A stretch of 64,000 bases of DNA from positions 102,325 to 166,324 of the forward strand of contig CAVPHV010000017.1 in assembly GCA_963704825.1 (NCBI GenBank). The letters are read 5' to 3'. Below, one piece after another: positions 2,568 through 21,836 of this stretch. The position numbers and the translations under genes are program-made. The notes beneath the pieces were generated by a model. The model had not been told where the DNA came from. It did no database searches and saw nothing but the letters and a program-made list of their open reading frames with translations. Position 1 is the first letter of the stretch. The number at the start of each line of letters is the position of its first letter. Source of the stretch: an uncultured Acidimicrobiia bacterium (lineage in GTDB: Bacteria; Actinomycetota; Acidimicrobiia; Spongiisociales; UBA5794).

Positions 2568-2586
2568 CTGCGGCACTGCTTCGGGC

Positions 2587-3648: not shown

Positions 3649-3706
3649 CGCAGAACGACCCGCCCGACGTCTGGCATGGTCGAGCGGGTCGTCGTGGTTT
3701 GCTACT

Positions 3707-5005: not shown

Positions 5006-5036
5006 TTCCTCTCACGGCGCGGGCGTTGCTGCGCGC

Positions 5037-6035: not shown

Positions 6036-6041
6036 GATCGG

Positions 6042-6368: not shown

Positions 6369-6403
6369 ATGGCGAGCGTAGCGATCGCTTCCGGCCCAAG
6401 CCG

Positions 6404-6841: not shown

Positions 6842-6962
6842 GGCCCGGCAGTGTACGGGAATCGGGACACGGTGGGGCAAACGCGACGGCGTGCAACGGA
6901 GACGGCCCCCGCTCGAGTGGAGCGGGGGCCGTCGGTACAGCGGTGTGGGAGGGAGGGGAGAA

Positions 6963-7379: not shown

Positions 7380-7433
7380 GTTGTGGTCCTCCTTGTTGGA
7401 CAGTCAAGTTCTACTTATCATACAACATAATGA

Positions 7434-7458
7434 AATCTGAGTCTATTCCACTCAGATA
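7434..7458 (-). promoter_or_regulatory. HAIR-like inverted repeat (candidate HspR operator) in the hsp20 promoter region
   Basis: aTCTGAGT-ctattcc-ACTCAGAt has an 8-bp perfect inverted repeat with a 7-nt spacer. It matches the HAIR pattern CTTGAGT-N7-ACTCAAG. It lies ~55-80 nt upstream of the hsp20 start in a locally AT-rich stretch. Confidence 0.55.
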
Positions 7459-7500
7459 AGCAGAAGAGCGCAAGTGGCGAAAGGTCCGAGTGCGCACAGA

Positions 7501-7530
7501 GAGGGGGCCCCGTCGCTGACGGGGCCCCTC
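7501..7530. terminator. GC-rich hairpin, probable terminator of the upstream 798-aa gene that insulates the hsp20 promoter
   Basis: GAGGGGGCCCCGTC-gctg-ACGGGGCCCCTC is a perfect 12-14 bp stem directly after the stop at 7558. A T-rich tail is present only on the plus strand. Confidence 0.5.
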
Positions 7531-7557
7531 TTGTCTTGGTGAGTCGGGTCGACCGGT

Positions 7558-9954
7558 TCAGTTGGTCACGATCGAGAACCGGCGATTGGCCTTTTGGGGG
7601 TCCTTGTTGCCGGCCCGGTCCACAACGTGGGCGAGGACCTTGAAGTTCCCGTCCTTCTTCAGGTTGCGGGTGAAGGTCCACGTGGTATCGGTACCGCCGG
7701 GATCGGCCAGGGTGACCCTCGGCAGCTTGACCTTCGGTCCCCACGACCCGTCGGGCTGCAGATACTTTCCGGTGTTGGTGTCCTTGACGATGAGTCTGAC
7801 AAAACCAACCCCGAGGTTGTCGGTTGCCCTTCCCTCGAACTGCACCGTCCGGGATGACAACGTCTGGTCCTTCTTGGGCTTCTTGAAGGTGGCGTTGGGA
7901 GCCGTCGTATCGACGCTGAAGGTGGCGGAGGCCTTGGCAGGGTCTTTGTTGCCCGCCAGGTCCTTGACCTGGACCCACACCTCGAAGTTGCTCTCCGGGA
8001 GTGTGCCATTCCAGTCCCAATTCGTTGTCGGTGTGTTGGGGGATGTCAGATTGGCGGGGACCGCGTTCCAGGCTCCCCAGGTGGTGCCGTTGTCCTGGAG
8101 GTAGTCACCCGTCTCCTTGTCCTTGATGATCAGGTTGACCTCGGCGACCGCAATGTTGTCGGTGGCACCGCCGCTCATGGCGACCGAGGTCGTCGCGAAC
8201 GCTTGGTCCGGGGCCGGGACATCGAGTGTCCCGTCCGGCTCAACCGTGTCGTTGCCGGAGGTCACGACGAACGATCGCGTCGCCGGCGAACCATCCACGT
8301 TGCCGACGATGTCTTCGGCCCTGACCGTGACGGTGTAGCTGCCGTTGGGGAGGTCGCCCGACCAGCCGAACGCGGTCGATGTGGCCTGATACTCGTGGAC
8401 GAAGGAAGGAATCTGGGCCCACGTCCCCGCCCACGTCAAGTCCGGCTGCAGATACTGGTCGTTGCCGGTGTTCTTGACCACCACATAGACCTCGGCGACA
8501 CCCCTGTTGTCGGAGGCGGTGCCGGTGACCGTGACCCGACCGTTGTATACCTGACCGTTGGTCGGCACCGTCAGGCTTCCGTTTGGTGCGGTGGTGTCGC
8601 TGGGTGGGGTCGTGCTCGGGAGCTCGAAGAGGGCGTGACGGAAGGTCTGGAGCCCGCCGAACCGTTCACCGTCGCTGCCGGCGAGGAGCCCAACCGGAGT
8701 GGCCTCGAGGGCGAGGACCCCGCGTTGGCCGGAGGCTCCCGGGTCCCATGGCAAGGCGGTGCCGTTGGCGGGATTGATGGCGCCGATCTGGTTCCGGTCC
8801 ACCGTGTTGGCAGGCTGCGTGTTGGTGTTGCCGTTCCCCCAGTCGGTCCACACCGTTCCCGGCTGCTGGAACCAGCGCATGTGGCCACCGACATAGATCG
8901 CCTCGTCGGTGATGGCGACGGCTTCGGGAGTGTCAAACATGCGAGATACCCACGTTGGGTTCACGCCGTTGCCCCCTGCGGTTGGGAAACGCACTGCGAC
9001 ATCGCATCCTGGGGCGAAGTTGCCGAGAGACGACACGGCTACGAAGTAGGAGCCGTCGGGCGAGAACTGCGCGTCGCGCATCAGCGGCCGGATGAACGAC
9101 TCGAACCACGGCTGGCAGTCGTAGTCGTAGTTGGTGGTCTTCCAGGGCAGCAGGCTGGGGGCTCCGTCGATGTCGATCAGGGCCACGCTTTGGCGCGCCT
9201 CACCGCCGACCTTGCGCGAGTTGTGGACGACCAGCAATGTCTTGCCGTCGGGGGTCACGTCGAGGGCCCGTACCGCACCTGCCCTGTTGTTGGGATCCCC
9301 ATCGATCCAGTACCCGGTTTCCTCGGTGACCGGGAAGTTGAAGTCCGCCGCGACCGCTCCGGTTTGCAGATCAACTGCGGCGAGCTTCTCGCGGGCTGTT
9401 CCGTTGACCTGTGCGAAGCCCCCGCCGAAGTAGACCCGATTGCCCGCAACGACAACGTCGTTGACCACTGCTGTGGCGTTCGCTTTGAAGGCGGTCACGA
9501 CGGATCCGTCGACCACGTTGAGCTTCACGACTCGCTTGCGGCTGAGCCCATTTACCGTGTTGAACTGGCCGACGGCGATGATTGTGCCGTCGCCGGCATC
9601 GGCCAGGGCAAAGACGGGGCCGCTCAGCTCGGGTCGGAATGCCATGTCGAGCCGGCCGGTGGCGATGTCGTAGGCAGCGAGATACGGCTGGTTGACCACA
9701 CCGAAGGTGTTGTCGCGCACCTGGGTGTAGCCCCCGCCGACGATGATGCGGTTGCCGACCTGGACGTGGCCGCGTACCTCGTCGTCGAGGAACTCGGGCG
9801 TATTGGCCCGAGGAACCTCTTTCACCACGTCACCGTGGTTGACTCCAGTGGCGGCTGCTTCGTCAATGGTCAGCGCCATGGTCAACGCTGTTGCCAGCGC
9901 CAGCACGACGACGAAGCCGGAACGAGCGCGGCCCTGTGTGAATCCGATCCCCAT
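7558..9954 (-). CDS. Secreted protein with an N-terminal beta-propeller-like region and three C-terminal ~100-aa Ig-like repeats
   Basis: N-terminal signal peptide (VVVLALATALTMALT). Three tandem repeats each contain ...TDN(R/L/I)GV(A/G)EV/FV...K(N/D)T(G/N).(D/K)YLQ(P/D)(D/N)G.W... . Confidence 0.7.
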   Translation of the reverse strand: MGIGFTQGRARSGFVVVLALATALTMALTIDEAAATGVNHGDVVKEVPRANTPEFLDDEVRGHVQVGNRIIVGGGYTQVRDNTFGVVNQPYLAAYDIATGRLDMAFRPELSGPVFALADAGDGTIIAVGQFNTVNGLSRKRVVKLNVVDGSVVTAFKANATAVVNDVVVAGNRVYFGGGFAQVNGTAREKLAAVDLQTGAVAADFNFPVTEETGYWIDGDPNNRAGAVRALDVTPDGKTLLVVHNSRKVGGEARQSVALIDIDGAPSLLPWKTTNYDYDCQPWFESFIRPLMRDAQFSPDGSYFVAVSSLGNFAPGCDVAVRFPTAGGNGVNPTWVSRMFDTPEAVAITDEAIYVGGHMRWFQQPGTVWTDWGNGNTNTQPANTVDRNQIGAINPANGTALPWDPGASGQRGVLALEATPVGLLAGSDGERFGGLQTFRHALFELPSTTPPSDTTAPNGSLTVPTNGQVYNGRVTVTGTASDNRGVAEVYVVVKNTGNDQYLQPDLTWAGTWAQIPSFVHEYQATSTAFGWSGDLPNGSYTVTVRAEDIVGNVDGSPATRSFVVTSGNDTVEPDGTLDVPAPDQAFATTSVAMSGGATDNIAVAEVNLIIKDKETGDYLQDNGTTWGAWNAVPANLTSPNTPTTNWDWNGTLPESNFEVWVQVKDLAGNKDPAKASATFSVDTTAPNATFKKPKKDQTLSSRTVQFEGRATDNLGVGFVRLIVKDTNTGKYLQPDGSWGPKVKLPRVTLADPGGTDTTWTFTRNLKKDGNFKVLAHVVDRAGNKDPQKANRRFSIVTN

Positions 9955-10036
9955 ACTCCTACCCCCGACGCGATGTAGCTGCCGTCGACCAATCCTCGTG
10001 CGGTGCGAAGCATGGCCGCCGTTGCTCCCACTCTAA

Positions 10037-10912
10037 TTGCGGAGGGGACTAGTTGGAGTGGGAGTTTTGGGGGCGCGCCGGAGGTCTAGTCTCGGCGGTG
10101 TGACGTTCTATCTGCTCACCAATGACGACGGGGTGGAGTCTCCTGCGCTTGTACCGTTTGCCCGGACATTGCGTCGCCTCGGGCGGGTCGAGGTGGTGGT
10201 GCCGGACCGAGAGCGAAGCTGGATCGGCAAGGCCATCACTCGTCACGACGAGATTCGGGTCGAGGTGGTCGAACGTGATGGGGTGCGCATCCACACCGCG
10301 ACCGGTTACCCGGCCGACTGCACCCAACTCGGGGTACATCTGCTCTTCGATGAGACGCCTGCCATGGTGGTTTCCGGGATCAACATCGGGTACAACCACG
10401 GGGCTGGATTCCTCCTGTCGAGTGGCACCGTCGGGGCGGCCATCGAGGGGTGGATCAGCGGGGTGCCGGCCATGGCGTTCTCCGCAGGAACCCGCGGGGA
10501 CTGGGACTACTGGAGTCACTTCGTGTGGACGGAAGACGCCACCGAGATGTGGAACCGTCTCGCCGGTCTTGCCACCGACATCATCGAATCGGTCATTGCC
10601 GCCGGTGGTGCCGCCGGGGCTGATGTGCTCAGCGTGAATCTTCCCGGCGACGCCGACACCACCACCCCGCGTCGGGTCACCTCGGTGGCGCGGGTGGGGT
10701 ACGACCACCTGTTTCGGCAGGTCGGCGATGGTGTCTTCAGTCACAGTTTTGGCGGTGGGTTTCGGCACATGGGTGGCCTCGTCGGCACAGATATCGAGGC
10801 GGCGGAGGATGGCATCATCTCCATCACGCCGATCCTCGTTCCCCAAGCCGGCACAATGACCCCGGACTTCGTCGCAATGTTGGAGCGCGGTGGTCGGGCC
10901 CCCGGCAGCTGA
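10037..10912 (+). CDS. surE: 5'/3'-nucleotidase SurE
   Basis: LLTNDDG motif plus conserved GINIGYNHG and SGTVGAA segments. The likely true start is GTG at 10100 (VTFYLLTNDDG). Confidence 0.85.
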   Translation: MRRGLVGVGVLGARRRSSLGGVTFYLLTNDDGVESPALVPFARTLRRLGRVEVVVPDRERSWIGKAITRHDEIRVEVVERDGVRIHTATGYPADCTQLGVHLLFDETPAMVVSGINIGYNHGAGFLLSSGTVGAAIEGWISGVPAMAFSAGTRGDWDYWSHFVWTEDATEMWNRLAGLATDIIESVIAAGGAAGADVLSVNLPGDADTTTPRRVTSVARVGYDHLFRQVGDGVFSHSFGGGFRHMGGLVGTDIEAAEDGIISITPILVPQAGTMTPDFVAMLERGGRAPGS

Positions 10913-10932
10913 GGCTCGTGCACCTGAGGGGG

Positions 10933-11021
10933 TGTTGAACAAGCGCCGTGCGGGATTGCGCCGTCGAGCAAGCGCCTGGTCTTGGACTTCGCGGCAAGCC
11001 CAAGCTGGCGTTGTTCAACAC
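10933..11021. terminator. Long imperfect inverted repeat between convergent surE and the downstream minus-strand gene (bidirectional terminator candidate)
   Basis: GTGTTGAACAAGCGCC at 10933-10948 pairs with GGCGTTGTTCAACAC at 11007-11021 (15/16) around a ~58-nt loop. Confidence 0.4.
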
Positions 11022-11023
11022 CT

Positions 11024-11776
11024 CTATGGGATGGTGGGGAGAAGTGCCCGAATCCGCTCGAGTACGCCGTCGAGAGTCACCACGGTGAAGCGGAAGGTTG
11101 GCGTCTCCGCCGGTTCGGTGGCCACCACCCAATAGCCGAGGTGTCCGGCGTCGAGCACTCGAAGTTCGGCGTCATGGTGAGAGTGGTCGATCTCGGTCCA
11201 CAGACTCGAAACACACCACGTGCGAAGCCGCGACCGATGGGCGAGCACCAGGCGCTTCGCCCAGTGGGCCTCGACGCCGGCGTCGGCGATGATTGCGGTG
11301 GCCGCGGCCGGATCGGTCATCCAGAGGTCCTCGGCGATCTCGATCGTTTCAACCGGGACGATGACCGAGCCATTGAAGCTGGGGTCGGGACGGGCGACGA
11401 TCTTGGTGAGCTGGGCGAGGTGGAACGGGAGGAGGACGGGTTCGATCGAGAAGAGTGCGAAGGCGTCATGGTCGCTCGGTTGGCCGAGGACGGCCTTTCC
11501 GTTGTGGTGCCAGATGGTTGCGATCTCGGTGTGCTCTTCCGTCACCTCGGTGGACACAACGGTGGTTGGTCCGGTCACGACCGAGAGCAGGTCGGCCGCC
11601 AGCGGGTGCAGGATGCCGCCACGGCTGATTCCGGCCCGCTCCAGCTCGGAGATCGCTCGAGTAATGGTCGGGTCTGCGTCGGTGGCGCCCCCGGTTCGCA
11701 GCAACATCGCCACCGGAACCAGGCGGCGGGGCAAGGTGAGGGCGCGTCGCCCGGCGTCGAGTATCGGCTGGGTCAC
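11024..11776 (-). CDS. Hypothetical cytoplasmic protein, third gene of the LysM/membrane-protein operon divergent from the esx-eccC operon
   Basis: ~250 aa, no TM helices. Probable GTG start at 11776 overlaps the upstream stop (GTGA coupling). EspG-like chaperone role considered but not supportable from sequence alone. Confidence 0.5.
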   Translation of the reverse strand: MTQPILDAGRRALTLPRRLVPVAMLLRTGGATDADPTITRAISELERAGISRGGILHPLAADLLSVVTGPTTVVSTEVTEEHTEIATIWHHNGKAVLGQPSDHDAFALFSIEPVLLPFHLAQLTKIVARPDPSFNGSVIVPVETIEIAEDLWMTDPAAATAIIADAGVEAHWAKRLVLAHRSRLRTWCVSSLWTEIDHSHHDAELRVLDAGHLGYWVVATEPAETPTFRFTVVTLDGVLERIRALLPTIP

Positions 11777-12708
11777 TGAGTGGCAGATCCGTGTGAGGCC
11801 GGAGGGCCGGGGAGGATGTCGGCCACTTCCCATTCGCCCCCGTTGCTGGAGAGCTCCAGTGTGTAGGCCACGACATGGACGATTCCGTTTGGCGTGGTTG
11901 CGTTGACGACGGTGCTCACGTAGGTCCGGCCATCGACAACACCTGTCGCCAGCTCAGACAGGGCAACCGCCTGATAGGGGAACGGCTCGATTGCCCGGAT
12001 GTCGCTGCCTGCGACGGTGTAACGCGACAGACGGTGCGACCCAACGAGCATGGCGTCGAGGAACTCTGCGGTGAACTCGGCCAGCTCGGCGTCGACCTCG
12101 TCTGCGAGGGGCGGGATAGGCGGCGGCGTCGGGGCGGGCGGCCCAGCAACTCGTGCCGGGATCTCGGTCACGATGAGCCGCCCATCGACCTTCATGACTC
12201 CGACTTGGTAGTGCTCGATCCCTGCCGAGACGTATCCGTTCTCGGTACGCTCCATGACCTCGGTGGCCACGGTCACATCCCAGTAGGCGCCGCCGAGCGT
12301 CCGGATCTCGATAGTGGCTGCTCGAGTCACATACCGATCGAGTGGTGACATCGCCGCCATCGTCGCCTGGGGTGCCATGAAGGTCTCAACGGACTGGCCG
12401 TTGGTCCCGCCTCCCGTCAGATAGGTCGCGATGAAGAGTTCGGCGAACCCGTCGACGCCGGAGGGCGGAGCAGGGGGTGCCGACACGGTGGCGCTCTGCG
12501 CTGCTCGGGATGCCCACAGCCCCGCCGCGGCGGCGAGCAGAGCGCCGATGGCGAGCGCGACGATGAGACCCCTGGTAGGTCTGCCCGCACGGTGTCTTGG
12601 GTACGGCGGGGCCGGTTCGATTTCCGCTTCGGTTGAGGGCTGAGTCTCCGCCCCGAAATAGTCCTCGATGTCGGTGACGGGTCTCCCAAAATCGAAGTGC
12701 GTGGTCAT
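11773..12708 (-). CDS. Single-pass membrane protein with a ~35-aa cytoplasmic N-terminus, one TM helix and a ~250-aa extracytoplasmic domain
   Basis: ATG at 12708 with GAGGA SD. It overlaps the LysM gene stop (ATGA). TM segment GLIVALAIGALLAAAAGLWA followed by a Pro-rich stretch and a globular domain. Confidence 0.6.
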   Translation of the reverse strand: MTTHFDFGRPVTDIEDYFGAETQPSTEAEIEPAPPYPRHRAGRPTRGLIVALAIGALLAAAAGLWASRAAQSATVSAPPAPPSGVDGFAELFIATYLTGGGTNGQSVETFMAPQATMAAMSPLDRYVTRAATIEIRTLGGAYWDVTVATEVMERTENGYVSAGIEHYQVGVMKVDGRLIVTEIPARVAGPPAPTPPPIPPLADEVDAELAEFTAEFLDAMLVGSHRLSRYTVAGSDIRAIEPFPYQAVALSELATGVVDGRTYVSTVVNATTPNGIVHVVAYTLELSSNGGEWEVADILPGPPASHGSATQ

Positions 12709-13487
12709 GGCTGTTCCTCGGCAACGGCGGGCAACACAACGATCTCGCCGGGATAGATGAGGTCGGGGTCGCTCGAGCGGATGACGTCTTGGTTGGCGAC
12801 GACAACGCGGTGCCAGTACTCGCCGACATCGGGCAGTTGGGCCCCCGAGGCCGCGAAGGTACCGAGGTGTTGTTCGGCAATAGTCCACAGGTTGTCGCCG
12901 GGGGCCACGGTCCACTGCGCCGGCTCGGTGATCACCATGGAGGTGGGCGCCGCAGTTGCCGGGCTGGGCACTCCTGCTGGGGTGGGGGTCCATCCGACTC
13001 GGGTGGCTCCCTGTGGCAAGGTCTCGGCCGGCTCGGGGTCTTCGCTGCCGACAAACGGCGGAATGGGGAGGCCGTCCTCGCCGATTCCTACGACGATCGG
13101 AGAGGGTCCGTCGGTGGCGATGGCGGACATGGCCGGTCCGGCGACGGTCGCGGCGACGATGGTCAGTGCCGCCGTGCCGTCAACGACCCTGCGCACCGCC
13201 GGGAGCGTTGCCCACTCGATCGCCCGTGCCGCGCCCGGAATCCTGGCCAACCGGGCCAGGGCGTAGAGCGCCGTTGAGATCGCAAGCCAGTAGGCAAGAG
13301 CCAGCGCGACGATCCGGAGTAGTGCCGGCAGCGACTCGTCGGCGGGAGTCTGCTGGAGCCAGTTTCCCAGCTGACGCCATGGAATCTGGAGCCACTCAAC
13401 CTCTCCGATGGCGTGTAGGGCCACGAGCGCGCCGGCCTCGAAGACGATCAGCGTGGCCGCCCGGACCCCTCTCGATTCTCGTTCCAT
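12705..13487 (-). CDS. Membrane-anchored LysM domain (peptidoglycan-binding) protein
   Basis: 2-3 N-terminal TM helices, a Pro-rich linker and a C-terminal LysM (WTVAPGDNLWTIAEQHLG...IYPGEIVVLP). Start ATG at 13487 (MERESRG); an upstream alternative TTG start exists at 13523. Confidence 0.65.
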   Translation of the reverse strand: MERESRGVRAATLIVFEAGALVALHAIGEVEWLQIPWRQLGNWLQQTPADESLPALLRIVALALAYWLAISTALYALARLARIPGAARAIEWATLPAVRRVVDGTAALTIVAATVAGPAMSAIATDGPSPIVVGIGEDGLPIPPFVGSEDPEPAETLPQGATRVGWTPTPAGVPSPATAAPTSMVITEPAQWTVAPGDNLWTIAEQHLGTFAASGAQLPDVGEYWHRVVVANQDVIRSSDPDLIYPGEIVVLPAVAEEQP

Positions 13488-13489
13488 TG

Positions 13490-13580
13490 AGTCATCATAT
13501 GCATTGCTAAATGTGTTTGTCAATAGTCAACAATCGTTATACTATATTGACAATTGTTAAATACCTTACATAATCTTCAA
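13490..13580. promoter_or_regulatory. AT-rich (~30% GC) divergent promoter island between the LysM operon and the WXG100-EccC operon
   Basis: Plus-strand promoter: -35 TTGACA at 13547-13552, 17-nt spacer, -10 CATAAT/ATAATC at ~13569-13575. Minus-strand promoter: -35 TTGACA (complement of 13516-13521), 17-nt spacer, -10 ATATGA (13493-13498) for a near-leaderless LysM gene. Near-palindromes TTGTCAATAGTCAACAA and TTGACAATTGTTAA overlap the -35 boxes. Confidence 0.55.
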
Positions 13581-13643
13581 CTATGACCAAGTCGACCGGC
13601 CCTGCGGTCGGTCGACTCGAGCAAGGAAGGAAGGACCAGCACA

Positions 13644-13916
13644 ATGGCGAATATGTTTGGGGCGGATCTGTCGGATCTCGCGGCCCTGCGGGGGACGTTT
13701 GAGACAAAGGCGGGCGAGGTCCAGGCGCTGACCGGAGAACTGTCGGCAAAGGTGGACCCGGCCGCAACGGCGTGGCAGGGGCCGGGCGCCGACAACTTCC
13801 GGGCGGCATGGAACGGCGACTTCAAGCCGGCACTCACCAAGCTCGAGACGGCCCTCGAGGAAGCCGCAGTTGCCGTCGGCAAGTACCGCGAGAACATCGA
13901 GGCGGCTACCCGGTAA
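13644..13916 (+). CDS. WXG100 family type VII secretion target (EsxA/EsxB-like), 90 aa
   Basis: Helical hairpin with central WQGPGADNF (WxG) motif. Size ~90 aa. SD GGAAGGAAGGA upstream. Confidence 0.85.
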   Translation: MANMFGADLSDLAALRGTFETKAGEVQALTGELSAKVDPAATAWQGPGADNFRAAWNGDFKPALTKLETALEEAAVAVGKYRENIEAATR

Positions 13917-13946
13917 CCCTGAGTCTCGAGATCGGGAGGGGAAACC

Positions 13947-14309
13947 GTGACCCCGCACCAGCTCCGGCAATTGGCCGACCGCAATCGGGCGGAGGCGGAC
14001 GCACTGACGGCGTCCGCCGCCCGACTGCGGACGACTGCCGAGTCGTTCCGCGATCTGCTGGAGGGGATTCCCGACCAATCCCGCCGGGTCTGGCAGGGAC
14101 CGGCCGCGACCGACTTCGAGGACAAGGCGCAGGCCGCAGACCGTGATCTCCGCCAACAGGCTCAGGTTCTGTTGAGCACCGCGAGCGACTTCGATCGGGA
14201 GGCGGCAGATCTCAGGGCAGCGGCCCGCGGGCTCGAGGTGCGAGCTGCTGCTGAGGAGGCGGCGACCGTTCCGGGTGAATCGGGTCCGCCTCCAACCGGC
14301 GTGTGGTGA
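13947..14309 (+). CDS. WXG100 family protein, 120 aa, second Esx-like gene
   Basis: Central WQGPAATDFE (WxG) motif. Paired with the upstream WXG100 gene and immediately followed by eccC. Confidence 0.8.
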   Translation: MTPHQLRQLADRNRAEADALTASAARLRTTAESFRDLLEGIPDQSRRVWQGPAATDFEDKAQAADRDLRQQAQVLLSTASDFDREAADLRAAARGLEVRAAAEEAATVPGESGPPPTGVW

Positions 14310-17300
14310 GTGATGCAGATCGTTGTGCACCGCGCCGGAGCCGAGTTCGAGGTGGTACTCGCCGTCGGCGACGAATCGGCCTCACTCGGCGAGATCGTGG
14401 CCGGGTGGTTCGAGGATGCCCCGGCGGCATTTGTCATCGACGGTGTGGTGCGATCGGGAGATACTCCCCTCGCAGCAAGTGGTCTGAGATCTGGATCAGT
14501 GCTCATTCCGCTGGCAGCAGCAGGCCCTATCCCCGAACTGACGGAGGGTGGGCTGGGCGCGGTCGGGCGGCCGTCCTCCTCCTCTCGCATTCCCTTCAAC
14601 CGCCCGCCGCGGCCAGAGTATCCGGTGTCGCTGCCGGCCATCGAGGTGCCGGCCGCACCGCCGGTGGCCAAAGCCTCGACCCGTTTTGGCTGGGGAGCGC
14701 TGGTCGTTCCGCTGATACTCGGACTGGTCATGGCGGTGTTCTTTCACCCCCGGATGGCGCTGTTCGCTCTCTTCAGCCCGGCCATGATGCTGGCCAACTG
14801 GATGGAAGACCGCAGGCGCAGCCGGCGCGAGCGCAGGAGCAGCCAAGCCGACCTCGATCGCAGTCTCGCCGGATTCGGGGACCGGCTCGACGACCTCGCC
14901 ACCGCCGCCGCCCGACTCAAACGCCGCGAGGTGCCGCATCCCGATGGGCTGATTGCATCTCTTGTCGCCGGGAGTCTGCGGATGTGGGAGCGTCGGGTCC
15001 ATCACCCCGACGCCATGGTGCTCGGAATTGGCAGCGGCGACGTCGCGTGGAGCCCGGCCCTGATCACCCCACCTGGGGGCGCCGCGGAGGAGGCGCTGGC
15101 ATTGCTGGCGACGCGCCGCGAGTTGCGCGGGGTTCCGGTCGAAGTCGAGTTGCGGCCCGGTGAGGTGACGGGACTGGTCGGCGATCGCCGCCGCGCCCTT
15201 GGCATGGCACGCTCGCTCCTGATTCAGGCTGCGATCCTCCACGGTCCGGCTGATCTCGAGCTCACGGTGGTCACCGACGCTCCGGATGTGTGGGATTGGA
15301 TCAAGTGGCTGCCTCACGCCGACCTCGACCCGGTGGCTGGGCTGCGCCGGCTCGGAGCCGACCGTGAGGACGTCGGCCCGGTCGTTACCGCCCTGTTGGA
15401 GTCGATTGAGCGGGATCCCGGAGGCAGCGGGCCGATGCGATTGCTCGTCGCCGATGTTGTGGATGTTGCCGCCGAAAGGTGGCAGCGGGTGCGAGAGGGG
15501 CTGAGCGCCGCGGCTCGGGGCAAGGCCGCCGCCATCGCGATTGCCCGCTCGATGAGCGAGTTGCCGTCGGTGTGTACTTCGATTGTTGCGGTTGGTGCCG
15601 GCGGGCCAGCACAGCTGCGGGCTCCCGCAGAGAATCGAAACGTCGGCGGGATTGCGCCGTGGGTCGTTGCTGCGGCGACGGCGCGCCGTGCGGCACGGGC
15701 GCTCGCCGGGTTTCGGGATCCCGATGTTGTCGCCGGTGCAGCAGAGCTTCCCCACCAGGTTCGTCTGCCTGATCTTCTTGGAATCTCCGATCCAACGCCG
15801 GACGCCATCCTGCGCCGCTGGCAGGCCGCAGGCGCCGCCCCGCGCCCGGCGGCCCCCATCGGCATGACCGCCGACGGTCCGCTTCTTGTCGACTTTGTGT
15901 CGGATGGACCCCACGCTCTGTTGGCCGGGACCACCGGCGCCGGTAAGTCCGAGCTGCTGCGCACGTTGGTCGCCTCCCTGGCGGCAACGAACGACCCCGA
16001 CCACCTCACCTTCGTGCTGATCGACTACAAGGGAGGGAGCGCCTTCGACGTCTGCGCCGACCTGCCCCACACCGTTGGTCTGGTAACGGATCTCGATGGG
16101 CACCTGGCGTCGCGGGCGCTCACCTGCCTGGAAGCCGAACTGCGCTACCGCGAGCAGCGTTTGCGCGCTGCGGGGGCATCTGATCTTGCCGCGTACTTGG
16201 CGGGTGGCGAGCCGGAGCCGCTGCCCCGGCTGCTGGTTGTCATCGACGAGTTCGCTGCCCTGGCCAAGGAACTGCCGGCGTTCATGGCGTCCCTCGTCGA
16301 CATCGCCCAGCGCGGCCGCAGCCTTGGGGTGCACCTCTTGCTCGCCACCCAACGGCCCGGGGGTGTGATCAGCGACAGCATCCGCGCCAACACCAACCTG
16401 CGGATGGCGCTGCGAGTCCAGGATGGGTCCGACTCGACCGACGTCCTGGGCATCCCGGACGCGGCAACGATTGGTCGGATGCAGCCGGGCCGTGGCCTGG
16501 TGCGGCGCGGACCCGGTGATGTGGTGCCGTTCCAGACGGCGCTGGTCACTACACCAAGGGGCGATGGCGCGGCAACCGCAGCTGCGGTGCGGCCGTTTGT
16601 CTTCGGCTACGAGCAGCCTGCGGCGGCAGGCACCGACCGCACCGAAACCGGTCCGACCGACCTGGGGGCGCTGGTCGACGCGGTGACTGGGGCGACCGCC
16701 ACCCTCGGGCTCGAGCCACCGCGTCGACCGTGGCCGGACCCGCTCGAAACCAACGTGGCCGCCAAGCTTCTCGACGCGACCCCGCCCGATCAGGTGCGCG
16801 GCGCGCGGATCGCGGTGCCGCTCGGGCTCGCCGACGAGCCCACCCACCAGCGGCAGCGGACCGCGTGGTGGTCAAGTGAGGATGGCAATCTGCTCCTGTA
16901 CGGCGTGCCTGGTTCGGGAACGACGACTGCTCTGGCGACCATCGCGCTTGGGGTGGCGGGACGCCACTCGCCGGACGATGTGCACGTGTACGTCATGGAC
17001 TTCGACGACCAGCGCTTGGCCCCATTGGCCGGTCTCCCCCACGTCGGGGCGGTGGTCGGGGCAGGGGAGCGAGAGCGTCAGCTGCGCCTCCTGCGGTTTC
17101 TCCAGGCCGAGGTGGAGGAGCGCCGGGTGGCGGTGGCGGCCGATCCGGCAGTCCTCGGGGAATTGCCCGCCCTGCTGGTGCTGGTGGACAATTACGCCGG
17201 TCTGGCGGCGGCCTTCGACGAGCCGGCCGACATGGCGGTGCGGACCATTCTCCCCCGGGTCGCGGCTGATGGCCCCGGCGTCGCCATCCATGTCGTGGCC

Positions 17301-18221
17301 ACGGCAAAACAGCCCATCGACATACCCGCCCAGCTGGGTTCTCTGGTCCCCGCCAAGCTGGCCTTTCGCCTCACCGATCGCTACGAGTACGGCGGGCTCG
17401 GCATCCCCATCGAAGAGGTGCCAAGGATCCCGGGACGCGCTCACCAATCGGGGACGGGGCAGGAGATCCAGATCGCTCGAGCCCATCCCGGTGGTGTCGC
17501 CGCGGCCGTAGACGCGCATGCCGACCAGGCAGTGGCGCGGCCACCGCATCGCATCGAGGTACTCCCCACCGAAGTCAAGGTGCCCGACATCGTCGATGCG
17601 GCGCGCGTCTTCGACCTCGAGTGGTCCCTGCCGATCGGGATCGGAGATCACGACCTCAGCCCGGTGGGGTTCGTGCTCGGCGAGGGAGATCACGTTGTGG
17701 TCGCCGGGCCGCCACGGTCGGGCAAGTCGACGGCGCTGATGACCATGGCTGCGATCGTGGCGAGCCACCGGCCCGACGTGATCATCACCGCGGTGGCTCT
17801 GCGGCGCTCTCCATTGCGAGACTGCCCGCAGGTGACGCGGCTCGTCACGGATCCTGAGCAGCTCGAGGATGCCCTTGGTTCGGTGCCCAACGGCGATGGG
17901 TCGCCCCATCTCGTGCTGGTCGATGACGCCGGGATGGTCGACGACGAGGGCGGCTGGCTATCCGCAATGGTCGCTTGCCGTCGGCCCGGGGTGCATCTGG
18001 TGGCGGCCGACCAGGCGGACACGCTGCGGGCCGCCTACGGGCATTGGACCAAGGATGTGCGACGTTCCCGTCTCGGACTCGCCCTCAAGCCGAACGCAGG
18101 CTCCGACGGGGATCTATGGCTAACGCCACTGCCGCGTCGAGGTCCGCCTCACTTCCCTCCCGGGCGGGGCTACCTGTTGGCGGATGGCCGCTGTGAGCTG
18201 GTGCAGACGGCATGGCAGTGA
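14310..18221 (+). CDS. eccC: EccC-like type VII secretion FtsK/SpoIIIE family ATPase with three P-loop NTPase domains
   Basis: 1303 aa. N-terminal soluble domain then two TM helices (~aa 125-165). Three Walker A sites: LLAGTTGAGKSE, LLLYGVPGSGTTT (degenerate) and VVVAGPPRSGKST. Start directly abuts the second WXG100 gene. Confidence 0.9.
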   Translation: MMQIVVHRAGAEFEVVLAVGDESASLGEIVAGWFEDAPAAFVIDGVVRSGDTPLAASGLRSGSVLIPLAAAGPIPELTEGGLGAVGRPSSSSRIPFNRPPRPEYPVSLPAIEVPAAPPVAKASTRFGWGALVVPLILGLVMAVFFHPRMALFALFSPAMMLANWMEDRRRSRRERRSSQADLDRSLAGFGDRLDDLATAAARLKRREVPHPDGLIASLVAGSLRMWERRVHHPDAMVLGIGSGDVAWSPALITPPGGAAEEALALLATRRELRGVPVEVELRPGEVTGLVGDRRRALGMARSLLIQAAILHGPADLELTVVTDAPDVWDWIKWLPHADLDPVAGLRRLGADREDVGPVVTALLESIERDPGGSGPMRLLVADVVDVAAERWQRVREGLSAAARGKAAAIAIARSMSELPSVCTSIVAVGAGGPAQLRAPAENRNVGGIAPWVVAAATARRAARALAGFRDPDVVAGAAELPHQVRLPDLLGISDPTPDAILRRWQAAGAAPRPAAPIGMTADGPLLVDFVSDGPHALLAGTTGAGKSELLRTLVASLAATNDPDHLTFVLIDYKGGSAFDVCADLPHTVGLVTDLDGHLASRALTCLEAELRYREQRLRAAGASDLAAYLAGGEPEPLPRLLVVIDEFAALAKELPAFMASLVDIAQRGRSLGVHLLLATQRPGGVISDSIRANTNLRMALRVQDGSDSTDVLGIPDAATIGRMQPGRGLVRRGPGDVVPFQTALVTTPRGDGAATAAAVRPFVFGYEQPAAAGTDRTETGPTDLGALVDAVTGATATLGLEPPRRPWPDPLETNVAAKLLDATPPDQVRGARIAVPLGLADEPTHQRQRTAWWSSEDGNLLLYGVPGSGTTTALATIALGVAGRHSPDDVHVYVMDFDDQRLAPLAGLPHVGAVVGAGERERQLRLLRFLQAEVEERRVAVAADPAVLGELPALLVLVDNYAGLAAAFDEPADMAVRTILPRVAADGPGVAIHVVATAKQPIDIPAQLGSLVPAKLAFRLTDRYEYGGLGIPIEEVPRIPGRAHQSGTGQEIQIARAHPGGVAAAVDAHADQAVARPPHRIEVLPTEVKVPDIVDAARVFDLEWSLPIGIGDHDLSPVGFVLGEGDHVVVAGPPRSGKSTALMTMAAIVASHRPDVIITAVALRRSPLRDCPQVTRLVTDPEQLEDALGSVPNGDGSPHLVLVDDAGMVDDEGGWLSAMVACRRPGVHLVAADQADTLRAAYGHWTKDVRRSRLGLALKPNAGSDGDLWLTPLPRRGPPHFPPGRGYLLADGRCELVQTAWQ

Positions 18222-19753
18222 GCGGCTTTCGCGGGATTGATCCCGACGGGCTCGTTGGGTTGAGCCGGATGATGGAGGGCACTGCGGCTGAGGTGCTCGC
18301 CGCAGGCAACCTGGGCTACGCGGTGCTCGTCCGCCGCGACCGGGAGTCCGCCGGCGACCGCTTCGGGATGGCGATGAGTCGCCTCGCCCGGCAACTCGAC
18401 GACGAGGCGGCGGAAATGAGCTGGCGGGCTGAGGCAATTCGACGGGGTCAGCTGATGACCTCCTCGTCGATGCCCTCGATGGTGGTTGCCGAACTCCTCT
18501 GGGAAGAGGCTGAGTTCGCCGCGGCCGCCAGGTTCACCGTCGGCGACCGTCAGGTGAGCTTCGAACAGTGGCGCCAACGCCCGCCGGTCCGCGCCCTGAG
18601 GAAGATGCGGCCGGACCAGGTGTCGGCGGCCTTGGCGGCCATGTCTCTCGCGGCAGTCGATCGCCTCCTGCTCGAAGAGCCAACCCTGGTGGGGGGGTTG
18701 GACGGAGCCCCCGCTTGGCTGCGGTGTACCGCAAACGACATGCTGATCGGGCGGGAGGTGAATCGGCTCGCCGGACTTGCCGCCGAGATCGCGGATGAGA
18801 TCAACCAGTTGGAGGATCTCGAGTGGTCGGGCCGCACCACGCAGCAGCGTCTGGTGCGCGAGGTGTACCTCGACGAACTCGAGCGGATCGAGGCGCGCAT
18901 CGCCATGTTCGGTCGGTGGTTGGCCGAGGATCGCCAGATCCTGCTGTTCGACCCTCGAGGTGACGGCCGAGTCGCTGAGGTGTTCGGAGACCTCGACCAA
19001 GCTGGTTTTGTCGCCGTGGTGGTGCCGGGGATCACCAACGACATCGACAACTTCGGTCCGATCGACGGTGGGGGGTTTCGAGCCAACGCCGGACAGCTCT
19101 ACGAGGAGGCGGCGAGGCTCGAGCCCGACGTGGCCACAATCGCCTGGCTGGGCTACGACACGCCCGATGGCGCCGATGCGGCGCTAGCCGGTGCCGCTGA
19201 GGACGGTCACCGCCACCTCGTTGCCTTCACCAAGGGTCTTGCCGCAGCGACTCCCGAACCGCACCTCACCGTCATCGGTCACAGCTACGGTTCGCTGGTC
19301 ACCGGGATGGCGGCGGGTGCCGGCATGGCGGTTGACGATGTTGTGTTCGTCGGAAGCCCCGGAACCAGCCTCGACCGGGCAAGCGAGGCGATCATCGACA
19401 GGGGGGGACGGGTGTGGGCGGGCTTGGCGCACAAGGACCCGATCGGGGCGGGCATCGATCCCCTTCCCGACTCGGCATGGGAGTTCATGCTCGGCCCAAT
19501 CGGCTCGTACGTATGGGACAGCTTTGGGACCGGTGACTACGCGACGGAGGACCTGTGGCATGGCCGCAACCCCGTTCACGAGTCGTTCGACGCCATCGAG
19601 TTCACTACCGATGGCGCCGCGGGTCATTCGCAGTACTTCGCCGCCGGCACCGAATCGTTGGCCAACCTGGCGCGCATCATCGCCGGTCTCGACTTCGCCG
19701 TCCGCTTGGTCGGTGGCGGCGAACTAGCAGCCGACTCAGTCGAAGACGATTGA
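18212..19753 (+). CDS. DUF1023-type alpha/beta hydrolase with N-terminal helical domain; candidate T7SS-associated substrate/effector
   Basis: 513 aa. GHSYGS nucleophile elbow and downstream Asp/His-containing segments in the C-terminal half. N-terminal ~250 aa helical. Start overlaps the eccC stop by 10 nt. Confidence 0.7.
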   Translation: MAVSGFRGIDPDGLVGLSRMMEGTAAEVLAAGNLGYAVLVRRDRESAGDRFGMAMSRLARQLDDEAAEMSWRAEAIRRGQLMTSSSMPSMVVAELLWEEAEFAAAARFTVGDRQVSFEQWRQRPPVRALRKMRPDQVSAALAAMSLAAVDRLLLEEPTLVGGLDGAPAWLRCTANDMLIGREVNRLAGLAAEIADEINQLEDLEWSGRTTQQRLVREVYLDELERIEARIAMFGRWLAEDRQILLFDPRGDGRVAEVFGDLDQAGFVAVVVPGITNDIDNFGPIDGGGFRANAGQLYEEAARLEPDVATIAWLGYDTPDGADAALAGAAEDGHRHLVAFTKGLAAATPEPHLTVIGHSYGSLVTGMAAGAGMAVDDVVFVGSPGTSLDRASEAIIDRGGRVWAGLAHKDPIGAGIDPLPDSAWEFMLGPIGSYVWDSFGTGDYATEDLWHGRNPVHESFDAIEFTTDGAAGHSQYFAAGTESLANLARIIAGLDFAVRLVGGGELAADSVEDD

Positions 19754-20401
19754 TTCGAGCATGGCTTCTCCCTCGGCAATCCGTTGCACGTTCAGATCGC
19801 CCTCATAGAGGAACGCGGCATATAGGGTGCCCGTTGCTGCCTCGATCAGGACAAAGCGGCTGACCGAAACCGTGCCGTCGTCATGGGAGATGGTGCGCTC
19901 CACGATATGGGCCGGAGCGCCGTCGATCGTCGCTTCCTCAGCCACGGTGACCTCGCTGGTGCCGGGGGTGGGGAAGAAGAACTCAGCGAAGAGGTCGGCA
20001 TTGGCGTCGGCGATCTCGGCTGGAGTTCCTGCGTCGGCGAAGTCGAGGTCTTCGGAGGCGAAGCCGATGAAGAGGACGCCGCCGGGCCCCTCCTCGGTGT
20101 CGATCAAGGCGGCAACACGCCCGTAGGTGATGCCGTCCTGGCGCACCACCCAGTCGCGTGGCACCGTGATCGAGATCCCGAGCGGCTCCACGGCAACCGG
20201 GTCGAGCGGGGCAGGCGCCGCGGCGCTCGACGTTGTCGGCGCCGCCGATGTCGTCGCACTGGGCGAGGCAGTGGTCGAAGTCGTCGTTGCTGTGGTTGTT
20301 GTGGTGGTGGCCGTGTCGGTTGCGGAGCACGCCGTCGCGGCGAGGACGACGACGGCGAGGGCTGCTGGCAACAACGTCCTACGGATGGGCATGGCCGCCA
20401 T
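19736..20401 (-). CDS. Secreted/lipo-protein with Thr-rich linker
   Basis: Signal peptide with LAATAC lipobox-like motif, poly-Thr linker and a globular C-terminal domain. It overlaps the yibE/F-like gene start, so the two are probably co-transcribed. Confidence 0.6.
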   Translation of the reverse strand: MAAMPIRRTLLPAALAVVVLAATACSATDTATTTTTTATTTSTTASPSATTSAAPTTSSAAAPAPLDPVAVEPLGISITVPRDWVVRQDGITYGRVAALIDTEEGPGGVLFIGFASEDLDFADAGTPAEIADANADLFAEFFFPTPGTSEVTVAEEATIDGAPAHIVERTISHDDGTVSVSRFVLIEAATGTLYAAFLYEGDLNVQRIAEGEAMLESIVFD

Positions 20402-21836
20402 CTTGGCCCGATGCGGTTCTGGCGGCGAGCCATGTGGTGATGGGCACTGCGGCTACAAGGCCGATGCTGCCAACCAGGGTCCTTACGATTTCGACGGCGA
20501 CGACCTCGCTGTTGGCGATCGACCCGAGCGATTGCTGGGCGAGCACAAAAAGGACGAGCAGCGGGAGCGAGGCTCCGGCGTAGGCGAGCAGCAGGGTGTT
20601 GACCGTCGAGGCGATGTGGTCCCGCCCGATCCTCAGGCCGCCGGCGAAGAGGCGGCCCCGGGTGAGAGCCGGGCTGGCCGCCTTCAGCTCCCACACCGCG
20701 GATGCCTGGGTCACGGTGACGTCGTCGATTGCGCCGGCGGCGCCAAGGACGATGCCGGCCAGCAGCAAACCCCGCACGTCGATCGACCCGAACAGTGTGA
20801 GGAACGAGCTCTCTTCGGTGGCGACCCCGGTGAAGTTCGCCAAGGCGACCACCACGGCGGAGAGCAGCGCGGTGAGGATCAGAGCCGACAGCGTACCGAG
20901 CAGGGCGACGGTGGTCATTCGCGAGAAACCATGGGCCAGATAGAGGGCAAGGTAGGCAATCGCAGAGGCACCGACCACGGCGACGAGCACCGGGCTGCGG
21001 CCATCGAGAATGGCAGGCAGCACAAAGAGCAAGAGCACCATCACGCTGGCGATAAGGCCGCCGAGTGCGGCAACTCCACGCAACCGCCCCAGGGCGACGA
21101 CGACCGCGGCAAAGAGCAGGGCCAGGGCGATCAGCAGCGGCCGCCGCTGGAAGTCGGCGAACTGGTAGAGGATGCTGGGGTCGACCGGCGCCACGGCGAG
21201 GATCTCGAGTTCATCGGCTTCATCTTGGAAGAACTCGATGACGGCCATGTCACCCGGCAGCAGCGTCTCGGCGTAGTCGCCGGGGAACAGTTCGTAGTCG
21301 ACATACCGGCCGGCGTCGCCATCGTCGATCAGGAGGGTGAGCGTTCGGCACACCTCCTCAGGATCGAACGAACATGGTACGTCGGTGACGTCGACCACGG
21401 TTGTGCTCGGGGAGAGGTACGACAGCACGACGGTCTGCCCGGCCGCAAAGTCGGGGATGGATCGTCCCTGGGTGTACTCCTGGACGAAGACGTACCCGAC
21501 GTCGGGCCCGCTGCTGAGCTCCATTTCGACCCGTAGGCAGGTCTCTGTTGGCAAGCCGCGGCAGGGGCGCTCCTCGGCGGTGAGCACGGTTGCCTCGTGG
21601 AACTGACTTGGCACGCCCAGGGCCACCAAGCGCTCGGCATCTCGACGCGACTCGCCGGTGGGGCGGAGGGCGATCATGCCCACGATGGTGAGGACGGCGC
21701 CGGCGATCGCGAGATAGGCAAGGACATCGAGGTCGACGCGAGGCCGCTTCTTCGCATCCGACTCTGGGGCGTACGCCATCCAGTCACCCAGGTCGGGATC
21801 GTGGGCGGGATCGTTCGGGACGTCCGGCGTCTCCAT
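20379..21836 (-). CDS. YibE/F family membrane protein
   Basis: N-terminal TM and extracytoplasmic domain, then a C-terminal multi-TM core rich in GxxxG/Ala (ILDGRSPVLVAVVGASAIAYLALYL...) typical of YibE/F. Confidence 0.65.
   Translation of the reverse strand: METPDVPNDPAHDPDLGDWMAYAPESDAKKRPRVDLDVLAYLAIAGAVLTIVGMIALRPTGESRRDAERLVALGVPSQFHEATVLTAEERPCRGLPTETCLRVEMELSSGPDVGYVFVQEYTQGRSIPDFAAGQTVVLSYLSPSTTVVDVTDVPCSFDPEEVCRTLTLLIDDGDAGRYVDYELFPGDYAETLLPGDMAVIEFFQDEADELEILAVAPVDPSILYQFADFQRRPLLIALALLFAAVVVALGRLRGVAALGGLIASVMVLLLFVLPAILDGRSPVLVAVVGASAIAYLALYLAHGFSRMTTVALLGTLSALILTALLSAVVVALANFTGVATEESSFLTLFGSIDVRGLLLAGIVLGAAGAIDDVTVTQASAVWELKAASPALTRGRLFAGGLRIGRDHIASTVNTLLLAYAGASLPLLVLFVLAQQSLGSIANSEVVAVEIVRTLVGSIGLVAAVPITTWLAARTASGQDGGHAHP

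Follow-up and report, generated by a model that had tools for sequence, protein, structure and literature searches.

A predicted ubiquitin-like domain fused to the N-terminus of a type VII secretion ATPase in an uncultured Acidimicrobiia bacterium

A ubiquitin-like (Ubl) module is among only three components common to nearly all type VII secretion systems (T7SS), and its role was clarified between 2019 and 2025 by structures in which it is bound to the DUF domain of the secretion ATPase. To our knowledge, a Ubl module that binds the ATPase DUF is present in every structurally characterised T7SS. The window analysed here (the whole stretch of 64,000 nt) carries an ATPase of this type beside WXG100 genes. 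The preliminary description had pointed to the first 70 or so residues of the ATPase, rich in strands and turns and placed ahead of the transmembrane (TM) helices, as a possible Ubl domain fused to this protein. The features of the locus are as follows.

11024 to 11833, minus strand: EspG-like protein, 269 aa (weak PF14011 match, 6e-4)
11773 to 12711, minus strand: TcpC-like single-TM protein (PF12642, 1e-7, 32.5 bits, above cut-off)
12705 to 13523, minus strand: membrane protein with a C-terminal LysM-like domain, 272 aa (weak LysM matches)
13644 to 13916, plus strand: WXG100 protein, 90 aa (PF06013, 1.7e-9; TIGR03930, 46.9 bits, above cut-off)
13947 to 14309, plus strand: second, divergent WXG100-like protein, 120 aa (weak WXG100 and PPE matches)
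14313 to 18221, plus strand: EssC/EccC-type T7SS ATPase, 1302 aa (PF01580 in three stretches; GC3 coding signature)
14313 to 14519, plus strand: predicted N-terminal Ubl (beta-grasp) domain of the ATPase, aa 1–69
14520 to 14678, plus strand: Pro-rich linker, aa 70–122 (12 Pro in 53 residues)
14589 to 14612, plus strand: conserved IPFNRPPR motif directly before the first TM helix, aa 93–100
14691 to 14930, plus strand: TM hairpin and stalk helix (hydropathy, AF2, Foldseek)
15018 to 15740, plus strand: DUF (degenerate ATPase-like) domain, aa 236–476 (AF2 pLDDT mostly >90)
18212 to 19753, plus strand: 513-aa protein with a C-terminal Abhydrolase_8 domain (PF06259, 1.5e-38), overlapping the ATPase stop codon

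The open reading frame of the ATPase begins at 14310 (GTG) or 14313 (ATG) and ends at 18221, and residues are numbered here from the ATG at 14313. The domain order is Ubl, Pro-rich linker, two TM helices, stalk, DUF and three FtsK/SpoIIIE P-loop domains, and the part from the TM helices onward, identified by hydropathy, AF2, Foldseek and PF01580, is that of an EssC/EccC ATPase. Hydrophobic segments were found at about aa 125–145 and 148–164, and AF2 places helices at aa 127–143 and 147–206. In Foldseek searches the stalk and DUF matched EccC3, EccC5 and YukB, the DUF matches being the EccC5 DUF (8rin, E 3e-13), EccC chains of ESX-3 and ESX-5, and YukB (9qks_G/H). NCBIfam scores were 495 bits for TIGR03928 (EssC; equivalog cut-off 778), 399 for TIGR03924 (EccCa; cut-off 509) and 291 for TIGR03925 (EccCb; cut-off 347), which leaves the protein outside the curated EssC and EccC equivalog groups. 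Judged by sequence, it is clearly a homolog of EssC/EccC; the name EccC given to it previously holds in that general sense and is otherwise a loose label, because the EssC model scores at least as well as the EccC models and all scores lie below their cut-offs. Outside the N-terminal domain the ATPase is canonical. With two TM helices and cytoplasmic C-terminal ATPase domains, the N-terminus is expected to be cytoplasmic as well.

It is the N-terminus that departs from the known pattern. The EccCa model TIGR03924 aligns only from residue 135 of the window ATPase (model position 27), and in the mycobacterial EccC match P0025 the first hydrophobic run lies near residue 48 (by eye), in keeping with the earlier statement that canonical EccC has a short N-terminus. 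The strand- and turn-rich domain was delimited to aa 1–69, and the Pro-rich linker that had been noted between it and the TM pair was likewise confirmed. Residues 70–90 of this linker are predicted to be disordered (AF2 pLDDT about 35), while aa 91–130 have block-mean pLDDT values of 73–87. The linker occupies the position at which most homologs have an FHA domain (PF00498/PF16697, about aa 88–178), and the IPFNRPPR motif, also seen in an alignment consensus, recurs in the homologs, near aa 200 where FHA is present and near aa 86 where it is lacking.

The fold predicted for the N-terminal domain is a Ubl beta-grasp, with beta-beta-alpha-beta-beta-(3-10)-beta topology, a length of about 70–80 residues and a mixed sheet around one helix, as the preliminary description had anticipated. 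Sequence searches were less specific. Pfam returned no match for aa 1–130 at E<=0.1 (PF08817 and FHA included), so that the window protein does not reach the PF08817 gathering threshold, and phmmer of aa 1–120 against PDB sequences likewise returned no match. Among 15 homologs, the weak Pfam matches were mostly to beta-grasp families, with YukD (PF08817) in 4 of the 15 (all sub-threshold, best E 0.0083) followed by SAMP2, ubiquitin, ThiS, Rad60-SLD and OTU1_UBXL; a few unrelated single matches also occurred. A profile of the domain searched against the PDB matched SAMP2 best (E 4e-4) and also ISG15 and ubiquitin, with YukD at E about 1, and NCBIfam gave SAMP2 matches, all weak. An hhalign comparison with a YukD-family alignment of low diversity (58–75% identity) gave a probability of 38% over 26 columns, a weak and partial match in a comparison that the low diversity limits. 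The likeness to YukD/EsaB and the EccD Ubl domains that had been suggested therefore stands at the level of fold; specific sequence similarity is weak.

A family profile built from 15 sequences of the domain was searched against 1.84 billion representatives and matched 445 clusters at E<=1e-3 (77 at E<=1e-10), the domain almost always opening an EssC/EccC-like ATPase of 1331–1822 aa at residue 1; the short matches were mostly contig-end fragments. A word-indexed homolog search with aa 1–169 had found two near-identical fragments only, and the wider family surfaced with an aa 1–520 query and the later profile search. In Pfam, the homologs show FHA at about aa 88–178 and FtsK_SpoIIIE, and their first 85 or so residues are without a match. 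An FHA signature (GR / SxxH / NG) is present in 54 of the 87 long profile matches. Ubl followed by FHA is the usual architecture, and the window ATPase belongs to an FHA-less minority. The fusion, which had been presented as a notable rearrangement, is real but widespread, usually with FHA next to it, rather than peculiar to this locus. The family is a large one of mostly uncultured actinobacterial ATPases.

The domain lies in a T7SS locus by virtue of its own ATPase and the two upstream genes; the WXG100 gene is kept in the related loci L001, L002 and L005, and the WXG100-like gene in L001 and L002. Partner genes of the known systems were not recognised. Across the 64-kb window, the candidate genes scanned gave no match to EccD (PF08817), EccB, EccE or the mycosin MycP, in agreement with the reported absence of EccD, and the window does not show the T7SSa (ESX) gene set. 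Neither these four genes nor a free YukD gene was found in the window or five related loci (for EccB, EccD, EccE and MycP, L005 and L007), a separate Ubl gene was found neither in the window nor in L003–L008, and the six-frame translation of the window holds no second copy of the domain. The Pfam families of the T7SSb set (EssB/YukC pseudokinase, EssA, EsaA/YueB and free EsaB/YukD) are also absent from the window, and the ATPase has no FHA domain, whereas T7SSb EssC has two, so the locus does not group with T7SSb either. Other neighbours are conserved. The LysM-like gene is kept in L001, L002 and L005; L002 and L005 also keep, 3' of the ATPase, the Abhydrolase_8 gene, whose product may be a T7SS substrate. 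The TcpC-like gene (true start uncertain within a 406-aa ORF, 11773–12993) shows tblastn conservation and has a PF12642 counterpart at the same place in L005, and the L005 counterpart of the EspG-like protein has PF14011 and is 37% identical.

The reading preferred here, drawn from computational evidence throughout and assigned a probability of roughly 0.7, is that residues 1–69 are a genuine, translated, cytoplasmic beta-grasp Ubl domain that stands in, in cis, for YukD or the EccD Ubl domain by docking on the DUF. The flexible Pro-rich linker would tether the domain to the TM hairpin and allow it to fold back onto the DUF of its own or a neighbouring protomer, where we infer that it would take the place of the missing EccD or YukD as an integral part that aids assembly or stability. 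Such Ubl–DUF contact has published precedent (PMC12637312, PMC11217815): YukD is held by the FHA and DUF of YukB, and the ubiquitin-like domains of EccD bind the EccC DUF (PMC12637312). The Ubl-FHA-TM-DUF arrangement of most family members would then be a covalent form of the YukD/FHA/DUF assembly, and in the window lineage, where the FHA domain has been lost, only the Ubl–DUF contact would remain. An AF2 model of 480 aa (pTM 0.81) fits a docked or a free domain alike.

The preferred reading presupposes that the domain belongs to the protein. In-frame GTG codons occur further downstream and the relative L002 has a frameshift deeper within the gene, so the true start might lie later, or an artefact of assembly or frameshift might have joined a small gene onto the ATPase; this is very unlikely. 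Compared with two Acidimicrobiia MAGs, dN/dS is 0.16–0.26 for the domain and 0.31–0.44 for the linker, and the domain is under purifying selection. Two independent MAGs, as well as metagenomic fragments, have the same unbroken reading frame, the TGA of the upstream WXG100-like gene (14307–14309) adjoins the start, and the domain stands at residue 1 of full-length ATPases in hundreds of clusters. Relatives open with MQIVVHR, and since the GTG preceding ATG 14313 is CGG in L001, the ATG is taken as the conserved start; the ORF beginning 'MMQIVV...' in the preliminary description is real, but counts the GTG as its first residue. The dN/dS values, the conservation of the ATG and the presence of the domain at the start of every homolog show that it is translated, and the suggestion that the true start might lie downstream was not borne out. 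Least probable of all is that the domain is an FHA, shortened or degenerate, like those of firmicute EssC. FHA domains do stand at the N-terminus of EssC proteins (PMC11217815), the nearest homologs of the window ATPase bear PF00498 and PF16697, and a C-terminal motif ('VIDG...L..GS.L.L') is superficially like FHA strands. Against this, Pfam detected no FHA in aa 1–130, the predicted fold is not a sandwich, and the homologs carry FHA as a separate domain downstream of the Ubl.

A minor but real share of the probability goes to the beta-grasp domain being genuine and having no YukD/EccD role, by way of a ThiS/SAMP-type origin, another partner or some other regulation of the ATPase. SAMP2, ISG15 and ubiquitin do outscore YukD in the PDB comparison, the NCBIfam matches, though weak, are to SAMP2, the hhalign similarity to YukD is weak, the neighbours that are conserved do not resemble the partners in ESX or Ess systems, and in T7SSb YukD also promotes YukC binding (PMC12637312). 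The domain cannot, however, be a conjugated modifier, because it is N-terminal and internal and has no C-terminal Gly-Gly, running on into the linker ('...VLIPLAAAGPIPE'). No alternative Ubl candidate exists in these loci, and in all T7SS subtypes but one a Ubl component is in contact with the ATPase, or is expected to be (PMC11217815, PMC12637312). The two explanations overlap, as a scaffold can dock on the DUF and also recruit partners; those suggested are the EspG-like chaperone, the TcpC-like or LysM membrane proteins, and substrates.

Set beside the known systems, the window ATPase shares with EssC (T7SSb) and EccC (T7SSa) the two TM helices, stalk, DUF and three FtsK/SpoIIIE domains, as well as WXG100 genes directly upstream. 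The N-terminus is where they differ: EccC has a short one and EssC two FHA domains, while members of the fusion family carry a Ubl, either with a single FHA or, as in the window, on its own. YukD/EsaB (PDB 2bps, 9qks chain A; PF08817) is a free 80-aa protein working with an FHA-bearing ATPase, whereas the window Ubl is joined to the N-terminus of an ATPase without FHA, is not recognised by PF08817 and shows weak profile–profile similarity; the EccD Ubl of T7SSa (e.g. EccD5 in 7b9f) is fused to the 11–12-TM EccD rather than to the ATPase. T7SS subtypes c–j, of which T7SSd of Actinomycetota is the most pertinent, were described by Garrett, Higginson and Palmer in 2024 (PMC11217815), and resemble the locus in having non-ESX gene sets centred on an ATPase and a WXG100 protein, in most cases with a Ubl protein as well. 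Some have EspG-like proteins or adjacent Tad pilus genes, the latter as in related locus L008. T7SSd is actinobacterial, with an FHA-bearing ATPase, and reportedly lacks a Ubl protein. In the text of that survey the Ubl is separate (TsxB), fused to EccD or missing (T7SSd), never fused to the ATPase, and the TsdC N-terminus in its supplement bears no resemblance by eye to the window domain. The TcpC-like, LysM and Abhydrolase_8 neighbours are missing from its list of components, the main text containing 0 instances of 'TcpC'. No published Ubl-EssC/EccC fusion was found in open-access papers and bioRxiv.

Tentatively, and at slightly less than even odds, this locus may belong to a T7SS subtype that is so far unclassified and is common among uncultured Actinomycetota, with the Ubl built into the ATPase (Ubl-FHA-TM-DUF-3xATPase or Ubl-TM-...) and with TcpC-like, LysM and EspG-like partners instead of EccB/D/E/MycP or EssA/B/EsaA. 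In that case the fusion would amount to natural 'Rosetta-stone' evidence that Ubl–ATPase(DUF) contact is the ancestral, indispensable core of all type VII machines, and the FHA-less variants would indicate that this contact can stand alone. MAGs of Acidimicrobiia, Solirubrobacteraceae and Pseudonocardiaceae are those named for the proposed subtype. A natural Ubl–ATPase fusion, conserved in hundreds of clusters and in loci without EccD or YukD, is independent evidence from evolution that Ubl and ATPase work together as a single unit. The domain is left unannotated by current Pfam and NCBIfam, and surveys that seek a separate small Ubl gene could therefore misscore such systems as lacking one. 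For studies of structure and mechanism, the fused ATPase provides a minimal system in a single chain, and the TcpC-like, LysM, EspG-like and Abhydrolase_8 proteins around it point to an undescribed T7SS gene set in the Acidimicrobiia.

The window (65% G+C) encodes a type VII secretion (T7SS) ATPase with the following N-terminal layout (residues numbered from the ATG at nt 14313):

nt 14310/14313-18221, + strand: T7SS ATPase ORF, with the domain at its 5' end
aa 1-69, nt 14313-14519, + strand: the domain, the stretch singled out in the preliminary description
aa 70-122, + strand: linker, 12 prolines in 53 residues
aa 93-100, + strand: conserved IPFNRPPR motif inside the linker, from homolog comparison
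about aa 125-145 and 148-164, + strand: hydrophobic segments, from hydropathy

The TGA at nt 14307-14309 is the end of the upstream WXG100-like gene. The nearest genomic relatives, in a genome-collection scan extended to close relatives only, are two uncultured Acidimicrobiia/Acidimicrobiaceae MAGs (83-86% protein identity over ATPase residues 1-520). As the GTG at 14310 is not kept (CGG in the related locus L001) while the ATG at 14313 is, and relatives begin MQIVVHR..., the protein is numbered from the ATG (1302 aa), one residue shorter than the 'MMQ...' start first proposed. The protein is an EssC/EccC-type ATPase, with three FtsK_SpoIIIE stretches (Pfam) and scores of 495 bits to TIGR03928 (EssC), 399 to TIGR03924 (EccCa) and 291 to TIGR03925 (EccCb). 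All three are below the curated equivalog cut-offs, and the protein is a clear EssC/EccC homolog yet outside both curated equivalog groups. Alignment begins at residue 96 with the EssC model and at 135 with EccCa, and the first ~90 residues are extra relative to both. The preliminary description of an added N-terminal stretch, followed by a proline-rich linker and a TM pair, is thus borne out. An AlphaFold2 model of aa 1-480 (23-sequence input, pLDDT 85.3, pTM 0.81) has the N-terminal domain followed by disorder at aa 70-90 (pLDDT ~35), helices at 127-143 (TM1) and 147-206 (TM2 and stalk), and an alpha/beta domain at 236-476. In Foldseek, the stalk and alpha/beta domain matched the stalk and DUF of EccC3, EccC5 and Bacillus subtilis YukB, as well as the EccC5 DUF crystal structure. 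Outside the N-terminal region, this is predicted to be a canonical T7SS ATPase.

AlphaFold2 modelling of the domain from an alignment of 15 homologous N-termini (pLDDT 84.4, pTM 0.71) gave the order beta(2-7), beta(10-15), helix(25-29), beta(39-42), beta(45-48), short helix(53-56), beta(63-67), a predicted ubiquitin topology that agrees with the beta-grasp fold suggested earlier. The Foldseek matches listed from the PDB were all ubiquitin-like or other beta-grasp structures, among them ubiquitin, OTU1 UBXL, NEDD8, ISG15, EccD5 (7b9f) and YukD (9qks_A, rank 5; 2bps, rank 9), with probabilities of ~1 and E-values of ~1e-2, in line with a query length of 80 residues. The N-terminal sequence of the window protein alone had no match in Pfam or among PDB sequences. 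Weak Pfam matches of the 15 homologs were concentrated on beta-grasp families (YukD in four of the 15; also SAMP2, ubiquitin, ThiS, Rad60-SLD and OTU1_UBXL), with a few unrelated single matches. Searched against the PDB, the domain-family profile found SAMP2 (E=4e-4), followed by ISG15, ubiquitin and RAD23; YukD scored E ~1. Profile-profile comparison with a YukD-family alignment, its query verified beforehand as identical to 9qks_A, gave 38% probability over 26 C-terminal columns. The predicted ubiquitin-like fold is therefore well supported, but the data do not support placing the domain in the YukD/EccD sequence family (PF08817); the likeness to YukD, EsaB and EccD originally proposed holds at the level of the fold, with weak sequence similarity.

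Selection on the N-terminal region was estimated against L001 and L002, which come from the two close MAGs:

aa 1-68, domain: dN/dS 0.16-0.26
aa 69-120, linker: dN/dS 0.31-0.44
aa 121-168, TM region: dN/dS 0.03-0.05

These values indicate purifying selection on the domain, which varies less freely than the adjoining linker. The same pattern of a conserved domain and a divergent linker is seen in a metagenomic fragment, P0002 (75% identity). Codon-position G+C is coding-like starting at 14310. Together with the conserved ATG, these data argue that the domain is real and translated, and against the possibility, raised at the outset, of a true start further downstream.

The domain profile, searched against 1.84 billion representatives, matched 445 clusters at E<=1e-3, of which 77 reach E<=1e-10; the match almost always starts at residue 1. 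Long matches (1331-1822 aa) align with the window ATPase across nearly its full length and carry the FNRPPR motif at about residue 200 and TM segments at about 225 and 250. Pfam identified FHA (about residues 88-178) and FtsK_SpoIIIE in family representatives and no match across the first ~85 residues; NCBIfam has no model for the domain. The few MAG names available place the wider family in Acidimicrobiia, Acidimicrobiales, Solirubrobacteraceae, Pseudonocardiaceae and Actinomycetota. The nearest homologs of full-length type (30-41% identity) have the same 70-residue domain, a separate FHA (PF00498/PF16697), the FNRPPR motif and TM helices, in that order; as they carry both domains, the possibility that the N-terminal domain is an FHA remnant was rejected. 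A minority lacks FHA and has the motif at about residue 86 (P0034, P0102, P0137 and the window clade); P0034, P0102 and P0137 are only 37-39% identical to the window protein. The closest relatives with an FHA region, P0003 and P0147, have a degenerate, Pfam-negative one, which suggests that the FHA domain decayed and then disappeared, perhaps on more than one occasion. The canonical phosphothreonine-binding FHA signature occurs in 54 of 87 matches of at least 260 aa, and in L003/L004 a separate, divergently encoded 221-229-aa FHA-domain protein (nt 9286-9975, - strand) adjoins the Ubl-FHA ATPase P0010. Together these hint at phospho-regulation, which the FHA-less window protein would have lost. 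In L008, the distant Ubl-bearing ATPase P0023 lies amid Tad-pilus-type genes (TadE, T2SSE ATPase, prepilin peptidase; nt 2314-6671 and 19786-20589), echoing the Tad adjacency of T7SSg/h in Bacillota (PMC11217815).

In L005 (nt 10001-14081, 712+634 aa) and L007 (nt 10001-14438, 904+576 aa), gene calling divides the Ubl-bearing ATPase in two. This may be a true division, reminiscent of the EccCa/EccCb split in ESX-1, or a frameshift. In L002 the ATPase frame is broken shortly after the TM region (nt ~10600-10620, the ORF resuming at 10620), probably an assembly frameshift. Elsewhere in the window, a DUF2252 gene falls into two neighbouring ORFs in different frames, nt 34416-35222 and 35230-35832 (+ strand; profile positions 1-191 and 202-392), which reads as a frameshift, either a pseudogene or a sequencing error.

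The neighbours of the ATPase are:

nt 11024-11833, - strand: EspG-like protein
within nt 11773-12993, - strand: TcpC-like (PF12642) single-TM protein
nt 12705-13523, - strand: LysM membrane protein
nt 13644-13916, + strand: WXG100 protein
nt 13947-14309, + strand: WXG100-like protein
nt 18212-19753, + strand: 513-aa protein with C-terminal Abhydrolase_8 (PF06259), with a 10-nt overlap at the ATPase stop codon

This gene set, from EspG-like to Abhydrolase_8, is syntenic in L001 and L002 and kept in L005, whose ATPase is only ~41% identical and retains a degenerate FHA region. The Abhydrolase_8 gene also follows the ATPase gene in L002 and L005, and its product is therefore a plausible secreted substrate. 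The EspG-like, TcpC-like and LysM genes (nt 11024-13523, - strand; L005 nt 6831-9251) are transcribed in the direction opposite to the WXG100/ATPase operon, and their products are putative partners of a T7SS that is neither ESX nor Ess. The WXG100 protein and its L001 counterpart (nt 9333-9602) are 100% identical, whereas the N-terminal half of the adjacent ATPase is only 83% identical, which is unusually strong conservation of the small secreted protein. A 798-aa protein with Big_7/Big_13 Ig-like repeats (nt 7558-9954, - strand), separated from the EspG-like gene by about 1 kb that contains a SurE gene, is syntenic in L001 and L002 but not present in L005. A connection with the T7SS is unlikely, although a large Ig-repeat component, TsdI, belongs to T7SSd. 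The candidate genes scanned across the 64-kb window included no EccB, EccD, EccE, mycosin, EssB/YukC or free YukD, in keeping with the earlier remark that EccD is absent. Six-frame translation of the window gave no second copy of the domain, and the family loci L003/L004, L006, L007 and L008 carry no PF08817 gene.

In T7SSb, YukD is essential for assembly: the FHA domains and the DUF of YukB grip it 'like a ball in a hand', and it also contacts an ATPase 1 hairpin. In T7SSa, the EccC DUF is bound by the N-terminal ubiquitin-like domains of both EccD subunits, one of which shares its DUF region with YukD (PMC12637312). The family chain, Ubl-FHA-TM-stalk-DUF, joins ball and hand, with both halves of the latter, in a single polypeptide, and the two TM helices would place Ubl, FHA and DUF all on the cytoplasmic side. 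By analogy, the domain may work like those of YukD and EccD, even though it fails the PF08817 sequence test. Its docking site would be the DUF of its own chain or of a neighbouring protomer, the ~50-residue linker being long enough to reach it. There, as part of the ATPase itself, it would promote assembly or stability, and no separate EccD or YukD would be needed. With FHA gone from the window protein, only the Ubl-DUF contact common to T7SSa would remain. The pTM of 0.81 for the aa 1-480 model fits a docked as well as a free domain. A partly overlapping explanation is that the domain, whose sequence is nearer to SAMP2/ThiS-type proteins, would instead bring in other partners, for example the EspG-like or TcpC-like protein. 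A role as a conjugated modifier was rejected, given the N-terminal internal position and the lack of a C-terminal Gly-Gly.

The gene set of the locus matches neither ESX nor Ess, nor any of the subtypes c-j, judged by their descriptions (PMC11217815; 'TcpC' is absent from its main text). Every described subtype except T7SSd has a ubiquitin-like component, free or fused to EccD (PMC11217815), and the printed N-terminus of TsdC from T7SSd looks unrelated to the window domain. According to an earlier survey, the actinobacterial YukD-like domain always comes fused to the 12-TM protein (PMC1779556), and searches of open-access papers and bioRxiv yielded no account of a fusion between a ubiquitin-like domain and the T7SS ATPase. 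The natural fusion is evidence for a Ubl-ATPase unit, and the locus may represent an actinobacterial T7SS subtype that has yet to be classified.
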